Shown here piece by piece: positions 25,621 to 38,700 of a stretch of DNA of 64,000 bases. Made by a program: the position numbers and the translations under genes. Position 1 is the stretch's first letter. Each line of letters starts with the position of its first letter. The notes under the pieces are model-generated. The model saw only the letters and a program-made list of their open reading frames with translations. It made no database searches and was not told the origin of the DNA. Origin of the DNA: Pecten maximus (Eukaryota); the NCBI RefSeq assembly GCF_902652985.1, contig NC_047016.1:23250001-23314000 (forward strand), read 5' to 3'.

Positions 25621-28600
25621 GTATAACTTAACACAAGTAAGATGTAAGTTCAGGTACCGTTTGAACTGATAACATAAGTTTCTTATTTAGTAGATAATCG
25701 CAAACACGAAATATGGATACTTGTTTCGACTTGTTTTTACTGTTACTACAGTTGCTATTATGAGAATAAGCTAAAACCTTGACAACAATTCGTTTCATAA
25801 GGAATCGAGCACGACGATTTAAATGCTGATGAAATAAAGAAATATAAGGGGAAATTAAGAAACAATTAGCATCATACCTTGGAATTAAGACACATATAGA
25901 GTCACAACCGGGAATAAAGGTGTCATTAGAGTCACACCTGGGAATAAAGGTGTCATTATAGTCACACCTGGGAATAAAGGTGTCATTAGAGTCAATACCC
26001 GGGAATAAAGGTGTCATTATAGTAATACCCGGGAATAAAGGTGTCATTATAGTCACACCCGGGAATAAAAGTGTCATTAGAGTAATACCCGGGAATAAAG
26101 TTGCCATTATAGTCACACCTGGGAATAAAGGTGTCATTATAGTCACACCCGGGAATAAAGGTGTCATTAGAGTAATACCCGGGAATAAAGGTGTCATTAG
26201 AGTAATACCCGGGAATAAAGGTGTCATTATAGTAATACCCGGGAATAAAGGTGTCATTATAGTCACACCCGGGAATAAAGGTGTCATTAGAGTAATACCC
26301 GGGAATAAAGGTGTCATTAGAGTAATACCCGGGAATAAAGGTGTCATTATAGTAATACCCGGGAATAAAGGTGTCATTAGTCATACCCGGGAATAAAGGT
26401 GTCATTATAGTCACACCCGGGAATAAAGGTGTCATTATAGTCACACCAGGGAATAAAGGTGTCATTAGAGTCACACCCGGGAATAAAGGTGTTATTAGAG
26501 TAATACCCGGGAATAAAGGTGTCATTATAGTAATACCCGGGAATAAAGGTGTCATTATAGTCACACCCGGGAATAAAGGTGTCATTAGAGTAATACCCGG
26601 GAATAAAGTTGCCATTATAGTCACACCCGGGAATAAAGGTGTCATTATAGTCACACCCGGAAATACAGGTGTTATTAGAGTCACACCCGGGAATAAAGGT
26701 GTCATTAGAGTCACACCCGGGAATAAAGGTGTCATTAGAGTCACAACCGGGAATAAAGGTGTCATTATAGTCACACCCGGGAAAAAAGGTGTCATTAGAG
26801 TAATACCCGGGAATAAAGGTGTCATTAGAGTAATACCCGGGATTCTACCATGTTTGCTATGCAACGCCAGTTTTGATTGGTTTAAAACCATGTATTATTT
26901 TCCAATTATACACGCTCGTGTCAATAATACACGTTTGTGAGTCACGGCTGTTACAATTTTATGTATCTAATATTCACCCGTTAATAATACTGTTACTTTA
27001 GCCGAGTGGGCTAATGGGTTAGTCTTTCTGTAACTTTTATCACGACGCGAGTTCGAATCCTACGAAGGCCGTTTTTTTGTTTTTTTCATCCCTTTTTTTT
27101 TTAAATTTCAAAATCAATGCCATATGATAGATGTTCTTGATCGTCGTACTGTAGTGCCTGTAAAGAAATGTATATTTCATCAACAAATAATGCAATACTC
27201 AAGAAATACGGGGTTTCTTTGCCGTTTTTCTATTAGACTTAGAGGTAGATCTCAAAATTAAACAGTACATGGTAGAATAGAAATAATCAACTTTGACTCG
27301 TGTATTGTTGCAGGATATACAACTCGGACTCGGATATTTTGCAATTTTAATTGATAACTCAGGCCTGCGGCCTTCGTTATTAATTTAATTGCAAAATATC
27401 CTCGTCCTCGTTGTATATTCTGCAACAATACACGAATCATCGTTAATTATTTCTTAAATAAAGGTGTCATTAGAGTAATACCCGGGACTAAATGTGTCAT
27501 TAGAGTAATACACGAGAGTTAAGGTGTCAGTAGAGTAATACACGAGAGTTAAGGTGTCAGTAGAGTAATACACGAGAATAAAGAATCCAAAAGAGTCATA
27601 CACTGAAATTAAGTTGCCAAAAAGTGATACCGGGGAATCAAGATGCCAATAGAGTGATACCGGGACTAAAACGTGCTAATAGAGTCATAACCGGGAATTA
27701 AGGTGTCAATAGAGTCATAACCGGGAATTAAGGTGTCAATAGAGTCATAACCGGGAATTAAGGTGTCAATAGAGTCATAACCGGGAATTAAGGTGTCAAT
27801 AGAGTCATAACCGGGAATTAAGGTGTCAATAGAATCATAACCGGGAATTAAGGTGTCAATAGAATCATAACCGGGAATTAAGGTGTCAATAGAATCATAA
27901 CCGGGAATTAAGGTGTCAATAGAGTCATAACCGGGAATTAAGGTGTCAATAGAGCGATACCCGGGAATTAAGGTGTCAATATAATCATAACCGGGAATTA
28001 AGGTGTCAATAGAGTCATAACCGGGAATTAAGGTGTCAATAGAGCGATACCCGGGAATTAAGGTGTCAATAGAGTCATAACCGGGAATTAAGGTGTCAAT
28101 AGAGTCATAACCGGGAATTAAGGTGTCAATAGAGTCATAACCGGGAATTAAGGTGTCAATAGAATCATATCCAGGAATTAAAGTGCGAACAGAGCAACAG
28201 AAACATCGACGTCGAAACAGAAGTGTTCATATATGATGTTTGTCACGGAAATTTCCAAATTGAGAGAAATATAAGGACTTGACATGAACTTTCAACCCAC
28301 GGTCTATATAATTACATGTGTTATATGTGGACCGTGGATTAGAAATTCGTGCCAAGTCCTGTTTAGCTGACGTATAAGTGTACATAATTTCATATGTTCA
28401 GGTATTATAGGCCTCTTGAAAGAAGATCCAGAAGAAAGACGACTTAAAGTGGAGGAAAATGGTAAAGATGTGACTTTCTCACCAAAGGATATTCTCACTC
28501 ATCTACTGGTTAAAGTGGCAGACATTGTCCATGAAAAATTTGGCAAAGTGAGTGACTTCCCCTTGAATACATCCCCATTAAATTATGTTTGATGATCTAA

Positions 28601-29690
28601 ATGGCACAGGCGCTAAGTCTTTAAAAAACTAAAGCGTGAAAGGAAATATAAATGTTGGTAGTATTTATACCGTTATTACTATGGTTGTTTTCGGCTTGTC
28701 ATTTTGACGGTATTATTATATTCTACTGTGACAGGACACTGTTGACACTGTAGTGGCCGTTCCTGTGGATTTGTCTGACGCTGGTCGACAGGCCGTCAAA
28801 GATGCGTGTAGTGATGTGGGTCTCAACATACTGAGGGTCATTAATGAAGCAACAAGTGCGTGTATTGCTCACGAACTTGATAATAAGGTAAATATTATAT
28901 TGGCAATTTTGAGTAACCCCTCCCCTGGAAGTTGCACCAATAGAACAAAGGGCAGACAGAGCAATGAGGAAAGAAAGGAAGGATTTAAGATCACAAGTGT
29001 TCCGTGTCTTCAATGACCCCTTAATAGAAGACACATAAAAAATCCCCGATTCATAAGTAGGCCCACTTTTAATTGCCTTTTACGACCAACATGTAACGTA
29101 ATGTAAACAACCCGGGTATTATGTAACATCCTTACTATACATTCAATGTAAACGACCCGGATATGATGTAACATCCTTACTATACATTCAATGTAAACGA
29201 CCCGGATATGATGTAACTATACATTCAATGTAAACGACCCGGATATGATGTAACAGCCTTACTATACATTCAATGTAAACGACCCGGATATGATGTAACA
29301 TCCTTACTATACATTCAATGTAAACGACCCGGATATGATGTAACATCCTTACTATACATTCAATGTAAACGACCCGGATATGATGTAACATCCTTACTAT
29401 GCATTCAATGTAAACGACCCGAGAAGGATGTAACAGCCTTACTATACATTTAATGTAAACGACCTGAGTATGATGTAACAGCCTTACTTCAATTCAATTC
29501 AATTCAATTTATTTCTCTTTAACCATACATAACAGTACAGAGAAAACATATTTACACAATACAAAAGTTATATACAGTTGTTCAGCCAGTGTATAAAGTA
29601 TGCACACGCAGACTGTATCAATTAGTTTATCAAAACATCTGATATTTAACCATATCGTTACGCATGATACCATTTTATATAATTTCAAAT

Positions 29691-29725
<35 letters not shown>

Positions 29726-32700
29726 TCAAGTCAAGATGAACATGATGTGTAACATCATGCTATGGAGGACACATTGCTAAAGATAATACTAATGAATTTA
29801 CAGAGTTTTTTCAATGTATTTACGTGGTTTGAGTTCATAAGATCTCTAAATTTTAATATGTTCGGCCTTGTATAATAATATTTATTTAGATATAATTTTC
29901 TATGCGCAGCTAATGACTGGCATTCTAGCAGATAATGGAATTCATCTCCTATTTGTTGACTATTACAAAAAGTACATATTCTTTCGTGGCGTTCAATATT
30001 ATTCCACCTTCCAGTTTCAATAATCAGTCTATGATTTGTAGTTCTGAACTTACAAAAAGTATTTCTTTCTTTATCTGTAAGAACGTCTAGATAGCATTCA
30101 AAACCAAATTTGTTTTTAAAAATTCTGTAACAACCAAACTTAGAAGAATTAAATACATCATTTTCCCACTGCTGTATAAACTGATCATGGAGTGTTTGTT
30201 TTACATATGACTTTATCCAAGAAGTATCTAATTCCTGGATATACTGGATATTCCACACATAGCTAATACCACATTCATCTAATAATTGTTGTATATAACG
30301 TATATAGGGAACATTATTATTACGGTATTGGTTTAGACATAACAGTTTATAAGTTATTACATTTAGTTTGTTTTCTTTTGAATTAATCAATTGAGACCAA
30401 TAGGTCAACATTCTCGTCTTAACTGAGATATTCAAAGGATAAGCTCCAAGTTCACCATAAACCATAGACGTTGGTGTACTTCGTTTGACCCCTAATAATA
30501 ACTTACAAAACTTTAAGTGCGCTCTCTCAATGACTTGTAGATTTGTAAAACCCCAAATCTCACATCCGTATAACAATATAGGTTTTACAATTTTATCATA
30601 CAGATCATATATACACTGAACAGATAAGTTATATAACCTTCCTTTCTTTAAAACATCATACATAGCAATTGTTGCTTTTTTAACATTGTAATTTTTAGCT
30701 TCATTAAAAGAACCTGTGCGTGAAAAAACAGTGCCCAGGTATGAAAAACTTTGGACAATTTCTATGTCTTCAGTATCAAATTTGAATTGTAATCTGTTAT
30801 TTAGACGACCTTTACTGAATATCATACATTTTGTTTTCTCACTGTTAACTTTCAGTCTCCATATTTTACAATATTCACTAAAAACATTTAGCTGCATTTG
30901 CAGGTCTTCTGGGGTGTCAGAAAATAAGATTGTATCGTCAGCATACAACAAAATAAATAGTTTAATATACATATGTAAATCAACTTCAAGTTGGTTTGTC
31001 AGGCACTGTAAACCGGTAACATTATTTCTAGTCATAAACTCCTCAAGGTCATTCAAATATAAACTAAATAAAAAAGGAGACAAGTTTTCCCCTTGCCTCA
31101 ATCCATTATTGCATGCGAAGAATGCAGAATTCTGACCATTAAATGATATGTTAGATTTAATACCTTGATACATATTGTAAATAATTGTATACATTTTGCC
31201 ATTTATATGATTTAACAACATTTTGTTCCACAGACCATTTCTCCAAACTTTGTCAAAGGCCTTTTCAAAATCAATGAAAATACAGTACAGCTTCTTTTTC
31301 ATCATATTAGTAAGACTAATTAGGGAATACAGCACAAAAATATTATCTATAGTTGAATACTTCTTGCGAAATCCAGCTTGGTTTTCACATATTAGATTAA
31401 CTTCGTCGGAATACTTTAATAGTCTTGCATTTAAAATACTTGTGAATAGTTTGCCGATGCAACTTACAATAGTAATCGGCCTATAATTTTTAGGGTCTGA
31501 GGGAGAACCCTTATTTTTATAAATAGGTACAATAGAGCCTCGAAGCCAGCTTTCAGGGATTTTCCCTGTGCTAAAAATAACATCAAATAATATAACATAG
31601 AGATCAATCATTTTAGAGGACGAATATTTAATATATTCATTAATGATGAGATCATCCGAGCAAGCCTTATTGTTTTTCAGTAGCTTAATAGCATGTTCCA
31701 CCTCCTCTCTGGTTATATTACTATTTAATACATTATTTACAGGACCCATATCAATATCATTATTATCAAACATGTTATCATCTACTCCAACATTTAAGGT
31801 TTTAAAGAAATTAAAAAGCGTGTCAATCGATATGTTACCTTTTTTGTTTTTATGTGTACTATTAGAACTTTTAAGTAGTTTCCAGTAATCCCGTGCATTA
31901 CTACTTTTCATATCTTTCAACTTACGACGGAGGTCTCTTCTGAATTTATTAATACTTTTATCCATTGTATGTTTGTAAGATTTTTCTGATTCTTTATATT
32001 TATTGAAGAAATAATCATTTTTGTGACGTCTGTACATACCTTTATGGCGTCGGAATAACTTCCTGGCCGCCTTACATTCACCGTCAAACCAGGGTTTAGA
32101 ATTTGATTTTGGCTTTTTACATATATTAGTATGGTTATATTTGTATATACCAAAAGTTGACTTAGCAGCACTTACAAGCACATCACTGCAGTCTGCCATA
32201 AGTGTATTGACATCTAGGTCGTTCGTATTACTGCATTGGTTAATTGTATCAATAATATTCTGAATTTTGTCATCGTTTATATTCTCAATAAAATGTTGGA
32301 TTTTCTCAGTCTCCCAGTTTTTAATACGTTCAGTATAATCTGTTGTATCATGTGTATTAATGTTATCATTGGTAACTGTATTGGCCATACCACCTATAGT
32401 AAGAGTTAGGGGACAATGTGCATCTGACATAAGAGGGCTAAAATCTAAAACATCAAAGTCACGTATGCGTTTTAGGAGCTCAGAGGAACATATGACATAA
32501 TCGACAACGCTAGAACTTTTACAGGTGCACTTACCTATATCTCTATCACGACCAACTCTACCATTACAGATAAAAATGTCATTATATTTACAAAAATCCA
32601 ATAGTCGATTCCCAAAATTATTTTTGTGTAAGTCCTGACTTTTTCTGTTCTTAGCAAAACCGGAATTTTCAAATACATTCATGTATGTAGCTTCATTTAG

Positions 32701-35700
32701 GATTTCAGTTGTTAATTGATCTCTATCGTCTATTTCATTGTAATCAATAAAATCTACAGAGCTCGCAGTTCTTGCATTAAAATCTCCTAACAAACACACA
32801 TTTTTGTAATTAGCTGATAACCTCAAGTATTCAGTTTCAATTTCCAAATATGGATCACCAATACAGTATGTAGAATTCTCGGGTGGGACATAAACCATTC
32901 CAAATAAAAAATCATCATCACTTTGTAACTTCGCGCCATCTAACCTAAACCAGCTTACGTATTGACTATCACTTTGTACTTCATAGACATAATCTTCCAA
33001 GTCATATTTATATGCTATAACTATACCACCCGACTTCACTTTTTTAAACTTTGCCCTATTTTTCATTACAGTTTTAAAACATGGCAAATCAATGACATCT
33101 AAATCATCAGTTTTGGATTCACAGAGACATAAAATATCAAAACTATTTACAAATTCACGAAACTCAGGATATTGAGCTTTTCTCACTAAGCCACAAACAT
33201 TTAACGACAGTATTTGTATTGTACATGCATTATAGTTACTTTTTCCACCACCACCATATGTATTAATCGGCTCGTTTGAAACCAAACTAGTGTCTATATT
33301 TTGCCCTCCGGCGCGTCCCTATTCGTGCTGATTTGAAATCACCCGTCTACGTTTCGAGCGCGGTTGTTGAGTGGGCGTATGCTGACTGGCCATGGGCTGA
33401 ACATCCGGGCCCTTATATAGTACACCATCTATGTACAGCTGATCTCTGTTCAACACAGTTTTTTTCCCGTTTTTCCTAGCTTCTTTCGCTACCGGATATA
33501 AAATTTTCCTTTTGTCTTCAATTTTCTTTGGAAACTGTTCGTTTATACCAAAATGTGACCCTTTTAGTTCTTTAGCACTCCGCTTGACTCTCAGTAAATC
33601 CTTGTAGTAAATAAACTTTGCTATGATTGATCTTGGCCGTGTACCGGTACGCCTGTCGCGTTGGCCGATTCTATGGACGTTGGCCATAGCAATGTCATGG
33701 GCGTTTACAATTTTGAGTTTACTTTCAATGAAATTTTTCAATGTTATTTCATCATCATCTAGACTCTGATTTTGGTCCCAAATTTTCTCTGGAATACCTG
33801 AAAATATCAGATTATACTTCATGCTCCTGCACTGTGCATCAGTAGCCCTATCTTTCATTTCCTCTATCATTTCGTGCAATTCATCAACTTCATCTAGGAC
33901 TTCATTTTCATTTTTTTCCAATTTGTCAATGCTTTTCTTCATGTTTGTAACGTTTCTGCCGACTGTATCATTTGCAGCCTTTACCCGATCCATGATATCA
34001 CTGTTACCCTGTATGTCACTTTCCATGTCCCTTATCTTATTTTTCATACAACTGATATCTGTTTCTGATCTTTCTACCCTCACAGTTAGGTTGCTGAGTT
34101 TTGTGTTAATCTCCTCGAGAGTGCTGGTATTTTCCTCAATTTTAGACAGTCTTGATTTCACTTCAGTAAACATTTCAAAAATAGAATTGATCGTGTTTTT
34201 CATTGTTGTGGTTTCAGTACTGACATCAGTTTCACTAAATAATGTTTCCCTACACTCTGCTAAAACTTTGGATGTAGACATACCTGTATTGTCCAGTGCA
34301 GCCATATTGGTGAGTTCAAGTCCTCAGAGTAAGATTTTCAAATCACAACAAAAGTTCATTTTCCCGGATAATTCCCGAATTTTTCCAGAATAATACCGAA
34401 CAGGATGCTAATCCAGCACTTACACAGCATTTTCAACAGTTTATAATGTTAATGACCCTACATTTTAGATAAAAACCAGCAAATTTCCTCTCCCAGATTT
34501 TTCATGTGTGTAGACACCTGGCTGAACACTACTCATGTCCTGAGTATGATGTAACAGCCTTACTATACGTTTAATGTAAACGACCTGAGTATGATGTAAC
34601 AGCCTTACTATACATTCAATGTAAACGACCCGGATATGATGTAACAGCCTTACTATACATTTAATGTAAACGACCTGAGTATGATGTAACATCCTTACTA
34701 TACATTCAATGTAAACGACCCGGATATGATGTAACAGCCTTACTATGCATTCAATGTAAACGACCCGAGTATGATGTAACATCCTTACTATACATTCAAT
34801 GTAAACGACCCGGATATGATGTAACATCCTTACTATACATGCAATGTAAATAACCCGGATATGATGTAACAGCCTTACTATACATTCAATGTAAACGACC
34901 CAGATATGATGTAACAGCCTTACTATACATTCAATGTAAACGACCCGGATATGATGTAACAGCCTTATTATACATTCAATGTAAACGACCTGGGTATGAT
35001 GTAACAGCCTTACTATACATTCAATGTAAACGACCCGGATATGATGTAACATCCTTAATATACATTCAATGTAAACGACCTGGGTATGATGTAACAGCCT
35101 TACTATACATTCAATGTAAACGACCTGAGTATGATGTAACATCCCTACTATACATTCAATGTAAACGACCCGGGTATGATGTAACAGCCTTACTATACAT
35201 TCAATGTAAACGACCCGGATATGATGTAACAGCCTTATTATACATTCAATGTAAACGACCTGGGTATGATGTAACAGCCTTACTATACATTCAATGTAAA
35301 CGACCCGGATATGATGTAACATCCTTAATATACATTCAATGTAAACGACCTGGGTATGATGTAACAGCCTTACTATACATTCAATGTAAACGACCTGAGT
35401 ATGATGTAACATCCCTACTATACATTCAATGTAAACGACCCGGGTATGATGTAACAGCCTTACTATACATTCAATGTAAACGACCCGGATATGATGTAAC
35501 AGCCCTACTATACATGCAATGTAAATAACCCGGATATGATGTAACAGCCTTACTATACATTCAATGTAAACGACCCAGATATGATGTAACAGCCTTACTA
35601 TACATTCAATGTAAACGACCCAGATATGATGTAACAGCCTTACTATACATTCAATGTAAACGACCCGGATATGATGTAACAGCCTTACTATACATGTTAA

Positions 35701-38700
35701 CGGCCCGGACATGTTTTTAACATTTATATGTAAAAAGTATTACATGGTTACCATTCATAAACACGATGCTTACATTTAGCCCAAAAGTTGTCTGGATGTT
35801 GCTCTCAAGTTATATAAATAGATTTTAAGTAATAAAGAGTGATCACGTACGGATTCAAGACATAACACTTGTTTAAATACAGTTTCCAGATAAAGAGATC
35901 CACGCGTTGGTAATTGACATGGGCGGAAGTACCTTCAATCTTACTATTCTACTCATTGAAGATGGAATATACGAAGTAGTCCATACAGCTGCGCATTCAG
36001 ATGTTTCCGGAAATAAATTTGACGAACGTTTGGCAGATTTTCTTATCAACGCACACGACAAGAAAAACAAGACTAACCTGCGGGATGATGCAAGAATCAT
36101 GCAACGCATGCGCACTGCATGCTGTAAGGCAAAAGAATGTCTTTCGTCGTCTTCATATACGAACATACTTATCGAAAACTTGCAAAATGACAAAGATTAC
36201 AAAACCAGCGTAACAAAACCAAAATTTGAAGAGTTGAATATGGACCTTTTCCACAATGCTGTTAAACTGGTCGATGGATCATTGAAGAATTCACACTTGA
36301 GTGAAGAAGATATTTATGTGGTGGTGATGGTTGGAGGCTCAACGAAAATACCAAAGTTAGTGGAAATGATGACCGACAGATTCCAAGGACGTGTGTTAGC
36401 GAGTAGCATTGACCCAGAGGATGTTGTTTCATTTGGCTGTGGTACGTGTCAGTTAGTCATCTTTAAAATAAAATAATTGCAAGTTTCAAAAGTTTTCAAC
36501 CAGATAGACCAAGCTACCGGTCAGCGTTTTGCTGCCTGTGAACTGATTTGTTCTTATTTTATATGAAGCTCATTATATTGAAGAGCTTATCAGAACAGGT
36601 AACAGATACATTGAAAAGCCCTTCAATTTCACCTATAATTATATTGACGATGGGCTATCTTTAGATAACAAAAACTATTGACCATGTCGACCGGATAAAC
36701 CCTGTAGAACTTCAATCCAAGGGCACTCCCGACTCCAACATCAGCAGCTTATCTCGAATTTTACTTACAACAGCATAAGTAACATAGGCATCTTACAGAT
36801 AAGCTGTATCATCAGCCTGATGATTTAAATTTTAAAATGAATATTTTCCATTTCTAGACAGTAACATCCCTACTTCCCATACCTACGGTGTTTACATGTC
36901 CTAGTTGATTCAATATATATAGGCTTGTTCCCATTATTACAATTTCCGTGACAGATGTCATCTACTACGAAGAGTAACAACACAGGGTTAGAAATACAGC
37001 TTGATGAAGACAAAGGGAAATATTTATGGTTGATATCATGATTTTATTTGTAAATATTATATTATCCTTACGCGATAAGAAGTCTGCCGTGTTTGGCGAT
37101 TATTGATATCCCTAATAATTTAATATTGTTACTTAACCCGGATTTGAACTTGACCTGTACTATTATGGCGGGTGTAGTCGATGAAGCAGAAGACGCTTAC
37201 TCTTCCGTAGTGCGCGGTCTTATTCTCCTTGTACTTTTTAAGGAGTCATCTCACAAATCTACATTTTTGTTCATATTTTGCATTCGTTTAATCTTTTTTG
37301 AGTTTGAATAATGTTTTTTTATTAAGTCGGATTTCTTTGTTTTATGAGTTGATCCGATAGTAAGGGGTGTAAGTGTGAATGCATCTAAACTCAAACGCTT
37401 TATTTTACATGTATCTTTGATAGTTGATTCCCATGTCATATATCATCGTGTTATTTCTTTGGACAGTTATGCAGGCGATGGTGCTGGCAGGAAATGTTTG
37501 TCCTGGACAGTTGACCGACCTCCTCTTGCTTGACGTAGAACCCTTGTCATTAGGTTTGGAAACTGCAGAAAATGTCATGACGGTTATGATACCTCGAAAC
37601 GCAACAGTGCCTTGTAAAAAATGTATGACATTTACAACTTATCATGACAACCAGGTCACAATGCTGTTCCGGTTGTTTGAAGGCGAACGATGTTTCGCCA
37701 CTGATAACAACGACCTCGGTATGTTTGAAATGACTGGGATTTGGGCTGAGCCTCAAGGTCGGGCACGGATCGACGTTACGTTCGATATTGATGCAAATGG
37801 CGTACTTACTATAACGACAGTAAACAGGTTTTCCAGGAAGACGCAGTCGTTTTCTTTGACGAATTTCAAATGTAAGTTTCATATTGTTATCTGGGCCTCA
37901 ATTTTATCATGCTATTCGGTTATTTTGTTTGTATCTATTTTAAAATATCAAGCATTTAATGTAGCTTTAGTTCTGTGTAAAGTTACACATTCCAGGTTTA
38001 TGTTATCTTATATCACATTGTTACATTATTTCATACAACATTGTAACATTAGTTTTATACCACTTTCTAACATTATCTTATACCACATCGTTGTATTATT
38101 TGTTTTTAATGTCTTTTTTTTTTTAACATAATTTTAGACATTATTGTTACATTTTTTCATACATCATTGTTATTTTAGTTTTAAATCACGTTGTTGCTTT
38201 AGTTTTTTATCACATTGTTACATTATCTTTTACCACATTGTTGCATTATTTGTTTTTAAAAGTCATCTTTTTACACAATTTCATACATCATTGTTACAAT
38301 ACTTAACGCAACATTTTTATCAGTTTTGAAGTCATTTGCATATACAGTATATGGTGGTACATTTGTAGAATACATATACAGTATATGGTGGTACATTTGT
38401 AGAATATATATACCGTATATGGTGGTACGTTTGTAGAATACATATACAGTATATGTTGGTACATTTGTAGAATACATATACAGTATATGGTGGTATGTTT
38501 GTAGAATACATATACAGTAAATGGTCGTACATTTGTATAATACATGGTGGTACATTTATAGAAAACATATACAGTATATGGTGGTACATTTGTAGAATAT
38601 ATATACCGTATATGGTGGTACGTTTGTAGAATACAAATACAGTATATGGTGGTACATTTGTAGAATACATATACAGTATATGGTGGTATGTTTGTAGAAT

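Follow-up and report, generated by a model that had tools for sequence, protein, structure and literature searches.

The window analysed here is a stretch of 64,000 nucleotides from Pecten maximus (RefSeq assembly GCF_902652985.1, contig NC_047016.1, positions 23,250,001 to 23,314,000 of the forward strand), and all positions below are those of the window. Its minus strand carries at 29488..34535 a full-length, young non-LTR retrotransposon of ~5.05 kb that is RTE-group-like and lies inside an array of a 45-bp satellite, found on both sides of the element (29100-29488 and 34544-35695). The 5' boundary at 34530-34536 is common to full-length copies. The ends of the element in the window show an apparent duplication of ~25 bp; the flanks of other copies are unrelated, and a long duplication is not obvious there. 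Also present are a 30-bp tandem array (27457-28185) and, on the plus strand at 35877-36476, a reading frame that from its translation we presume to be Hsp70-like.

ORF1 (33322..34305, minus strand) encodes 328 aa from the first ATG at 34305, within an upstream frame of 334 codons from stop to stop (34323-33322, minus strand). It has a coiled coil and an RRM/CTD region that is weakly L1-ORF1p-like: the ORF1 family profile gave weak matches to L1 ORF1p chains (E about 0.008-0.009), and a Pfam search with ORF1 returned no family above cut-off. ORF2 (29755..33318, minus strand) encodes 1187 aa, comprising a 33-codon linker, an APE endonuclease (EN) and a reverse transcriptase (RT); its Pfam matches above cut-off were PF03372 and PF00078, and EN and RT were the only domain families matched. 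The 3' UTR (29488..29754, minus strand) ends in AATAAA and then an (AATTG)n tail. Together with 5'-truncated dispersed copies, the combination of ORF1, an APE-RT ORF2 and a simple-repeat tail marks the element as an APE-type non-LTR retrotransposon. Mytilus and Patella supply the closest named proteins, and the protein atlas yielded no more than eukaryotic clusters without a name and a lead to a Baculo_FP-type family. In an RT tree without named tips, these elements stand apart from single-ORF AUG-started LINEs. We tentatively take the clade to be RTEX/Proto2 (RTE group), helped by passages in PMC10294476 and PMC3905857; no match for the clade name was obtained in the 12 of 33 PMC10294476 supplements that were searched.

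A TAG at 33319..33321 (minus strand) is the sole stop between ORF1 and ORF2 and is predicted to be a readthrough codon. An earlier note on this DNA, made from its letters alone, had read the minus strand here as CAG CAC GAA TAG GGA CGC GCC GGA GGG CAA with ORF2 continuing in the ORF1 frame after a single stop. The reading is correct, with TAG at 33321-33319, and the frames 34323-33322 and 33318-29755 are in one phase, such that reading TAG through would give 1516 aa. Directly after the stop lies a spacer of 8 bases (+4 to +11, 33311..33318) whose first base is G, a type III-like context. The first ATG of ORF2 is codon 85 (33066), which lies 3' of the catalytic residues Asn40 and Glu67. Neither varies when 18 family representatives are aligned, and both fall inside the stretch over which the ORF2 endonuclease profile aligns with L1 EN, from L1 residue 5. 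Because the catalytic residues precede the codon-85 ATG, an AUG start would remove them from the endonuclease, as the earlier note had argued.

To judge whether this arrangement is peculiar to one copy, other copies of the window family were compared. TAG-GGA was present in 18/18 junction-covering copies among 30 window-family loci, and when the stop was masked as NNN in the search pattern, 17/17 matches read TAG and none TGG. The sense codon that would have marked a copy-specific mutation was therefore seen in no copy, and since TAG occurs in all masked-stop matches and young copies, the window element is not a broken copy. Naturally fused copies were absent among the matches listed (the best 150 candidates being scored each time), where no open frame exceeded 1196 aa.

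Distant relatives were collected from the same genome as 60 and then 40 regions around endonuclease matches, with ~29-63% identity to the queries. Ten of the first 60 regions were dropped, five with the TAG-G motif displaced in frame and five without a clear junction, and 91 regions were scored, the window counted in. In 69/91 the C-terminal domain of ORF1 could be recognised. ORF1 was open and in frame up to the stop before the endonuclease in 64 of these 69, and that stop was TAG in 63/64, the sole exception (L122) having TAA with the TAG motif displaced; the remaining ORF1-positive regions were one with an extra stop and four decayed copies out of frame. Counted by family, 31/44 clusters own an open-ORF1 copy and 30/31 of these have TAG. 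Frame and stop are thus kept across distant families, with no pattern of the variable frame offsets that the earlier note had held would speak against its reading. A panel of 54 lineage representatives was picked because their junctions are intact; L122, L146 and L226 are not in it, nor are holdout rows that were truncated or decayed. Within this panel the junction stop was TAG in 54/54 and +4 was G in 49/54. At the nucleotide level, conservation is seen only at the stop, at +4 and in a purine patch spanning +12 to +19. The ends of ORF2 (n=36) were TAA in 25, TGA in 8 and TAG in 3 representatives, and the upstream stops of unrelated AUG-started LINEs were mixed (6 TAA, 6 TAG, 2 TGA). An outlying element, L241, carries an in-frame TGA in place of TAG. 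Judged from these counts, the stop is not a copy-specific defect and the trait is clade-wide.

The same junction was found outside the P. maximus genome. A search by whole-ORF2 alignment found 161 external loci, the endonuclease start being present in 65, and one partial locus in viral contigs. Among 19 external loci assigned to the same group by tree (two, too short for the tree, by similarity), 11 had the same open in-frame junction, six had no detectable ORF1 and two were broken. From their record titles, the contigs of the external loci are evidently animal DNA within metagenomes and symbiont bins. Many full-length LINEs of animal type (L223-L302; proteins P0022, P0037, P0069, P0081, P0107, P0112) sit in bacterial bins of animal symbionts and go under the name of bacterial reverse transcriptases; they are likely host DNA.

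The absence of a usable AUG is equally general. No ATG precedes the catalytic Asn in 51/54 lineage representatives, an in-frame linker ATG being present in L225, L229 and L319. Linkers are 12 to 47 codons long, except for two of 193 and 309, and the frame is kept throughout. In L235 an AUG-free linker of 193 codons would lack a stop by chance with probability 0.0003; the support that this lends is weak, since ORF1 of the same copy contains an additional stop. The stop lies just 6 codons 5' of the catalytic Asn in L252, L258 and L260. Public Mytilus gene models (P0005, P0008, P0009, P0010, P0040, P0045 and others) place ORF1-like sequence and endonuclease in a single protein, which may stem from a skipped stop, a false intron or a natural fusion. 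The in-frame arrangement and the missing AUG are conserved over dozens of families and several hosts.

Small hairpins downstream of the stop had been put forward in the earlier note as stimulators of readthrough. They can be drawn, yet the window junction folds locally no better than shuffled sequence (z -0.16), and the same was true of 38 lineages, where five windows of local folding gave no signal (mean z -0.09 and 0.02). A compact local pseudoknot of the gammaretrovirus type was not found with a folding program that does not model pseudoknots, and the extended local stem-loop that carries the proximal site in tombusviruses was absent in the local folding of the 38 lineages.

A scan of each element for partners of the post-stop bases repeatedly returned the end of ORF2 or the 3' UTR. 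Pairing was tested by comparing +9 to +26 with the 700-nt window around the ORF2 stop of the same family (cognate) and of other families (swapped); these test windows were picked after the partner scan and then fixed before held-out families were analysed. In the discovery set, from which 9 of 38 lineages without a usable 3' end were left out, the 29 remaining lineages gave a cognate mean of -16.6 against a swapped mean of -14.1 kcal/mol, and 0/100,000 permutations were as good. The signal was localised: it appeared in 2/41 query windows (+7 and +13) and in 3/22 target windows, all at the ORF2 end. The 14 held-out families, fetched later and tested with the windows fixed, reproduced it (z -4.9, 0/100,000 permutations) with the same localisation, and the pooled 43 lineages gave z -8.1. 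Between 21 non-overlapping closest (sister) pairs, cognate pairing was better in 13, worse in 4 and tied in 4 (p 0.025), and a control region gave 9 versus 11. No cognate-pairing signal was found in 10 AUG-initiated LINEs (z +1.2). Taken together, these comparisons demonstrate, at the level of predicted pairing, a family-specific complementarity between the post-stop bases and the 3' end.

The predicted helices share a position at the stop and vary elsewhere. The proximal strand begins at +9 to +14 in 26/26 strong predicted helices, the query window itself having begun at +9, and pair types differ among lineages (e.g. G-C, A-U and C-G at +14). The best ungapped helix falls inside the 3' window, ~18% of the length, in 28/43 lineages and outside it in 15/43; the position of the distal site ranges from the last 500 nt of ORF2 to the end of the 3' UTR. 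In L083, L095 and L304 the distal partner is within ORF2 coding sequence, 250-470 nt 5' of the stop, and in their relative L134 it is in the 3' UTR, so that the predicted site has moved between them. Several external lineages have a helix of just 6-7 bp. When five 3' ends were extended, L109 gained an 11-bp partner without mismatch at +438, right next to the tail, and L128 and L132 gained helices with interruptions; L117 was still weak. Six outlying in-frame-TAG elements gave a weaker signal (z -2.1, p 0.046), to which L154, L256 and L260 contribute most. In L154, a LINE that is only distantly related and reads TAG-CAA, the bases from +12 are predicted to form a perfect helix of 14 bp with the 3' UTR of the same element, which 0/500 shuffled queries match. 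Two further distant elements with an in-frame TAG, L174 and L189, have a 13-bp complement that starts at +4 and lies only ~343 nt 3'. At the 3' ends of L315, L317, L319, L321 and L325, inspection by eye shows a small hairpin whose loop contains GTAA; it adjoins the tail and is possibly an RT recognition site.

In the window element, the predicted proximal element GGAGGGCA (33302..33309, minus strand; +13 to +20) lies within the conserved purine-rich patch, and its predicted partner, the distal element TGTCCTCC (29764..29771, minus strand), occupies the final ORF2 codons about 3.53 kb 3'. The helix 33309-33302 / 29771-29764 has 8 bp, one of them G-U, and alone is not significant, since 19% of shuffled queries equal it somewhere in the element. 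The distal site is intact in 30/30 young 3'-end copies, and the kin L141, L142 and L223 have a partner at the same distal site, which is read there in another frame.

These features resemble two viral systems in which a UAG stop is recoded. In passages of PMC13517186 and PMC3159437, the UAG-G of Moloney murine leukaemia virus (MoMLV), type III in the Beier-Grimm scheme, needs a downstream structure, from +12 after an 8-nt spacer. Here too a structural and a polymerase ORF are in frame across UAG-G, and the predicted helix begins near the same point, ~8 nt past the stop; L134, L138 and L326 read TAG GGG TGT CAG, which fits the gammaretroviral UAG GGR NGU CAG cited in parts of the same two papers. 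Unlike MoMLV, this is a non-LTR element with EN and RT as the only families found in ORF2, no compact local structure and a predicted partner kilobases away. For carnation Italian ringspot virus (CIRV), as described in part of PMC3234231, a readthrough structure pairs over >3.5 kb. The likeness to the PRTE-DRTE interaction of CIRV and turnip crinkle virus (TCV) extends to UAG-G, to pairing over ~3.5 kb of a site 3' of the stop with the RNA 3' end and to a polymerase made as the readthrough product (same passages). However, the viral proximal site lies in the bulge of a large local stem-loop and here begins from ~+12 with no conserved local fold, and the viral pairing is proven by compensatory mutants, the present one resting on covariation. 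Lacking both the local pseudoknot and the stem-loop, the element belongs to neither the gammaretrovirus nor the tombusvirus element family.

Among retrotransposons, readthrough was suggested from consensus sequences for the Paramecium Group 3 non-LTR elements, LINEs that also have ORF1 and ORF2 in one frame; these belong to a ciliate clade, and the relevant passages of PMC5405496 give no signal, stimulator or test. Other routes to LINE ORF2, as outlined in parts of PMC5972666, PMC5009743 and PMC3894237, are stop-start coupling in SART1, unconventional reinitiation in L1 and 2A peptides. Human L1 and silkworm SART1 share with the present element a bicistronic LINE RNA and low ORF2 output, and ORF1 here is weakly L1-like, but both have an ORF2 AUG (after a 63-nt spacer in L1, overlapping the stop in SART1), and their two proteins are separate (PMC5972666 and PMC3894237, in part). 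Candida Tca2 also has an in-frame stop between gag and pol, but it is an LTR element with a UGA stop and a mechanism that PMC2194720 leaves unresolved; in that study the junction alone did not direct readthrough.

We consider it probable that type III UAG readthrough produces an ORF1-ORF2 fusion, with long-range 3' pairing as the predicted stimulator; readthrough by whatever stimulator is, in our judgement, highly probable. The majority of ribosomes would terminate at UAG and set ORF1p free. Some few would meet the helix, which starts near +12 and hence 8 nt past the stop, at the mRNA entry channel, a near-cognate tRNA would insert an amino acid at UAG, and the ribosome would proceed through the variable stop-free linker into ORF2 to yield the 1516-aa ORF1-EN-RT fusion. 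More speculatively, the fusion might join ORF1p assemblies via the coiled coil, as Gag-Pol does with Gag, and the enzyme might be made solely from transcripts that retain their 3' end. Programmed readthrough to such a fusion, as the earlier note proposed, stands as the best explanation of the sequence pattern; its local hairpins do not, and pairing with the 3' end is likely the stimulator instead.

The main rival, which we think rather unlikely, is that ribosomes terminate at UAG and then restart in frame independently of AUG, making a separate ORF2p, with 3' pairing holding or repositioning the ribosome. Passages of PMC5009743 describe L1 ORF2 initiation as unusual and AUG-independent, so a missing AUG alone is no proof of fusion; in SART1 the coupling uses a downstream structure (PMC5972666, in part), and most linkers here contain some near-cognate codon. 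However, restart gives no reason for a fixed UAG-G or for an ORF1 frame kept over many linker-length changes, and in L125, L258 and L260 the sequence up to the catalytic Asn is devoid of near-cognate codons. Moreover, a TURBS-like TGGGA within 100 nt upstream occurs in just 5/54 representatives (1/54 for a control window) and is not general, and TTG 33285, the non-AUG start that the earlier note named as a potential refutation, is not conserved.

An unlikely alternative is that local context alone directs readthrough and that the 3' pairing serves another purpose, for instance to circularise the RNA, to shield it from nonsense-mediated decay or to pass the 3' end to the new RT. It would suit a distal site that shifts in position and sits close to where reverse transcription begins, but not a proximal strand that stays fixed at about +9 to +14 in the strong helices, even allowing for the +9 start of the query; type III context is also weak without structure, according to part of PMC13517186.

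Neither editing nor splicing nor a nonsense mutation is a likely explanation. A-to-I editing could turn UAG into a Trp codon, as at the hepatitis delta amber/W site, and would fit a stop that is nearly always UAG. Against this, the predicted helix starts past the stop, whose A stays unpaired, none of the 17 masked-stop matches has TGG, L241 has TGA, and RNA-type contigs were unchanged at 33320, bearing in mind that such contigs drop rare variants and may hold DNA; we hold editing to be very improbable. Equally improbable is that TAG|G is a splice acceptor, with ORF2 expressed from spliced RNA. The splice acceptor consensus includes AG|G, with which the junction is compatible, but the triplet is never CAG, no pyrimidine tract precedes it (C+T 0.48 at -22 to -3, equal to background), and among RNA-type contigs from 4 runs (one on record as RNA) there was no splice joint and three contigs crossed the junction unspliced. 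A nonsense mutation in one long ORF, or a host that reads UAG as sense, found no evidence in its favour and has a negligible probability, as the stop is common to all young copies and distant families, and ORF2 frames of >1100 codons lack internal TAG and end in TAG in 3/36 cases.

For UAG readthrough stimulated from the far 3' end, the reporter with ~100 nt of 3' context suggested in the earlier note would probably return a false negative. The failure of the Tca2 junction alone (PMC2194720, in part) likewise urges caution with short, junction-only reporters.

Our search of the literature, which covered largely open-access papers and 12 of the 33 PMC10294476 supplements, found no account of readthrough at UAG or of a long-range pairing for this clade, and passages of PMC10294476, PMC11203168, PMC5753468, PMC3905857 and PMC12477816 make no mention of either. 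Readthrough in a LINE has thus been suggested before, in Paramecium, and for the long-range pairing we found no earlier report.

In summary, we lean towards the view that a broad, old LINE lineage makes a Gag-Pol-like fusion by UAG readthrough, switched on by pairing with its own 3' end and hence on complete transcripts only, with L154, L260 and L256 suggesting a reach well beyond molluscs. Part of PMC3894237 describes ORF2 translation in LINEs as an open question, to which this clade offers a precise answer in the form of a conserved stop context and a named pair of sites. On this model the elements are mis-annotated, with ORF2 proteins predicted to start at ATGs inside the frame and both ORFs joined in some gene models. 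If the model is true, a recoding device of plant RNA viruses would be present in animal genomes, in convergence with retroviral Gag-Pol, and dozens of natural readthrough cassettes would be at hand. It would also provide these retrotransposons with a route to cis preference and to quality control against truncated transcripts.
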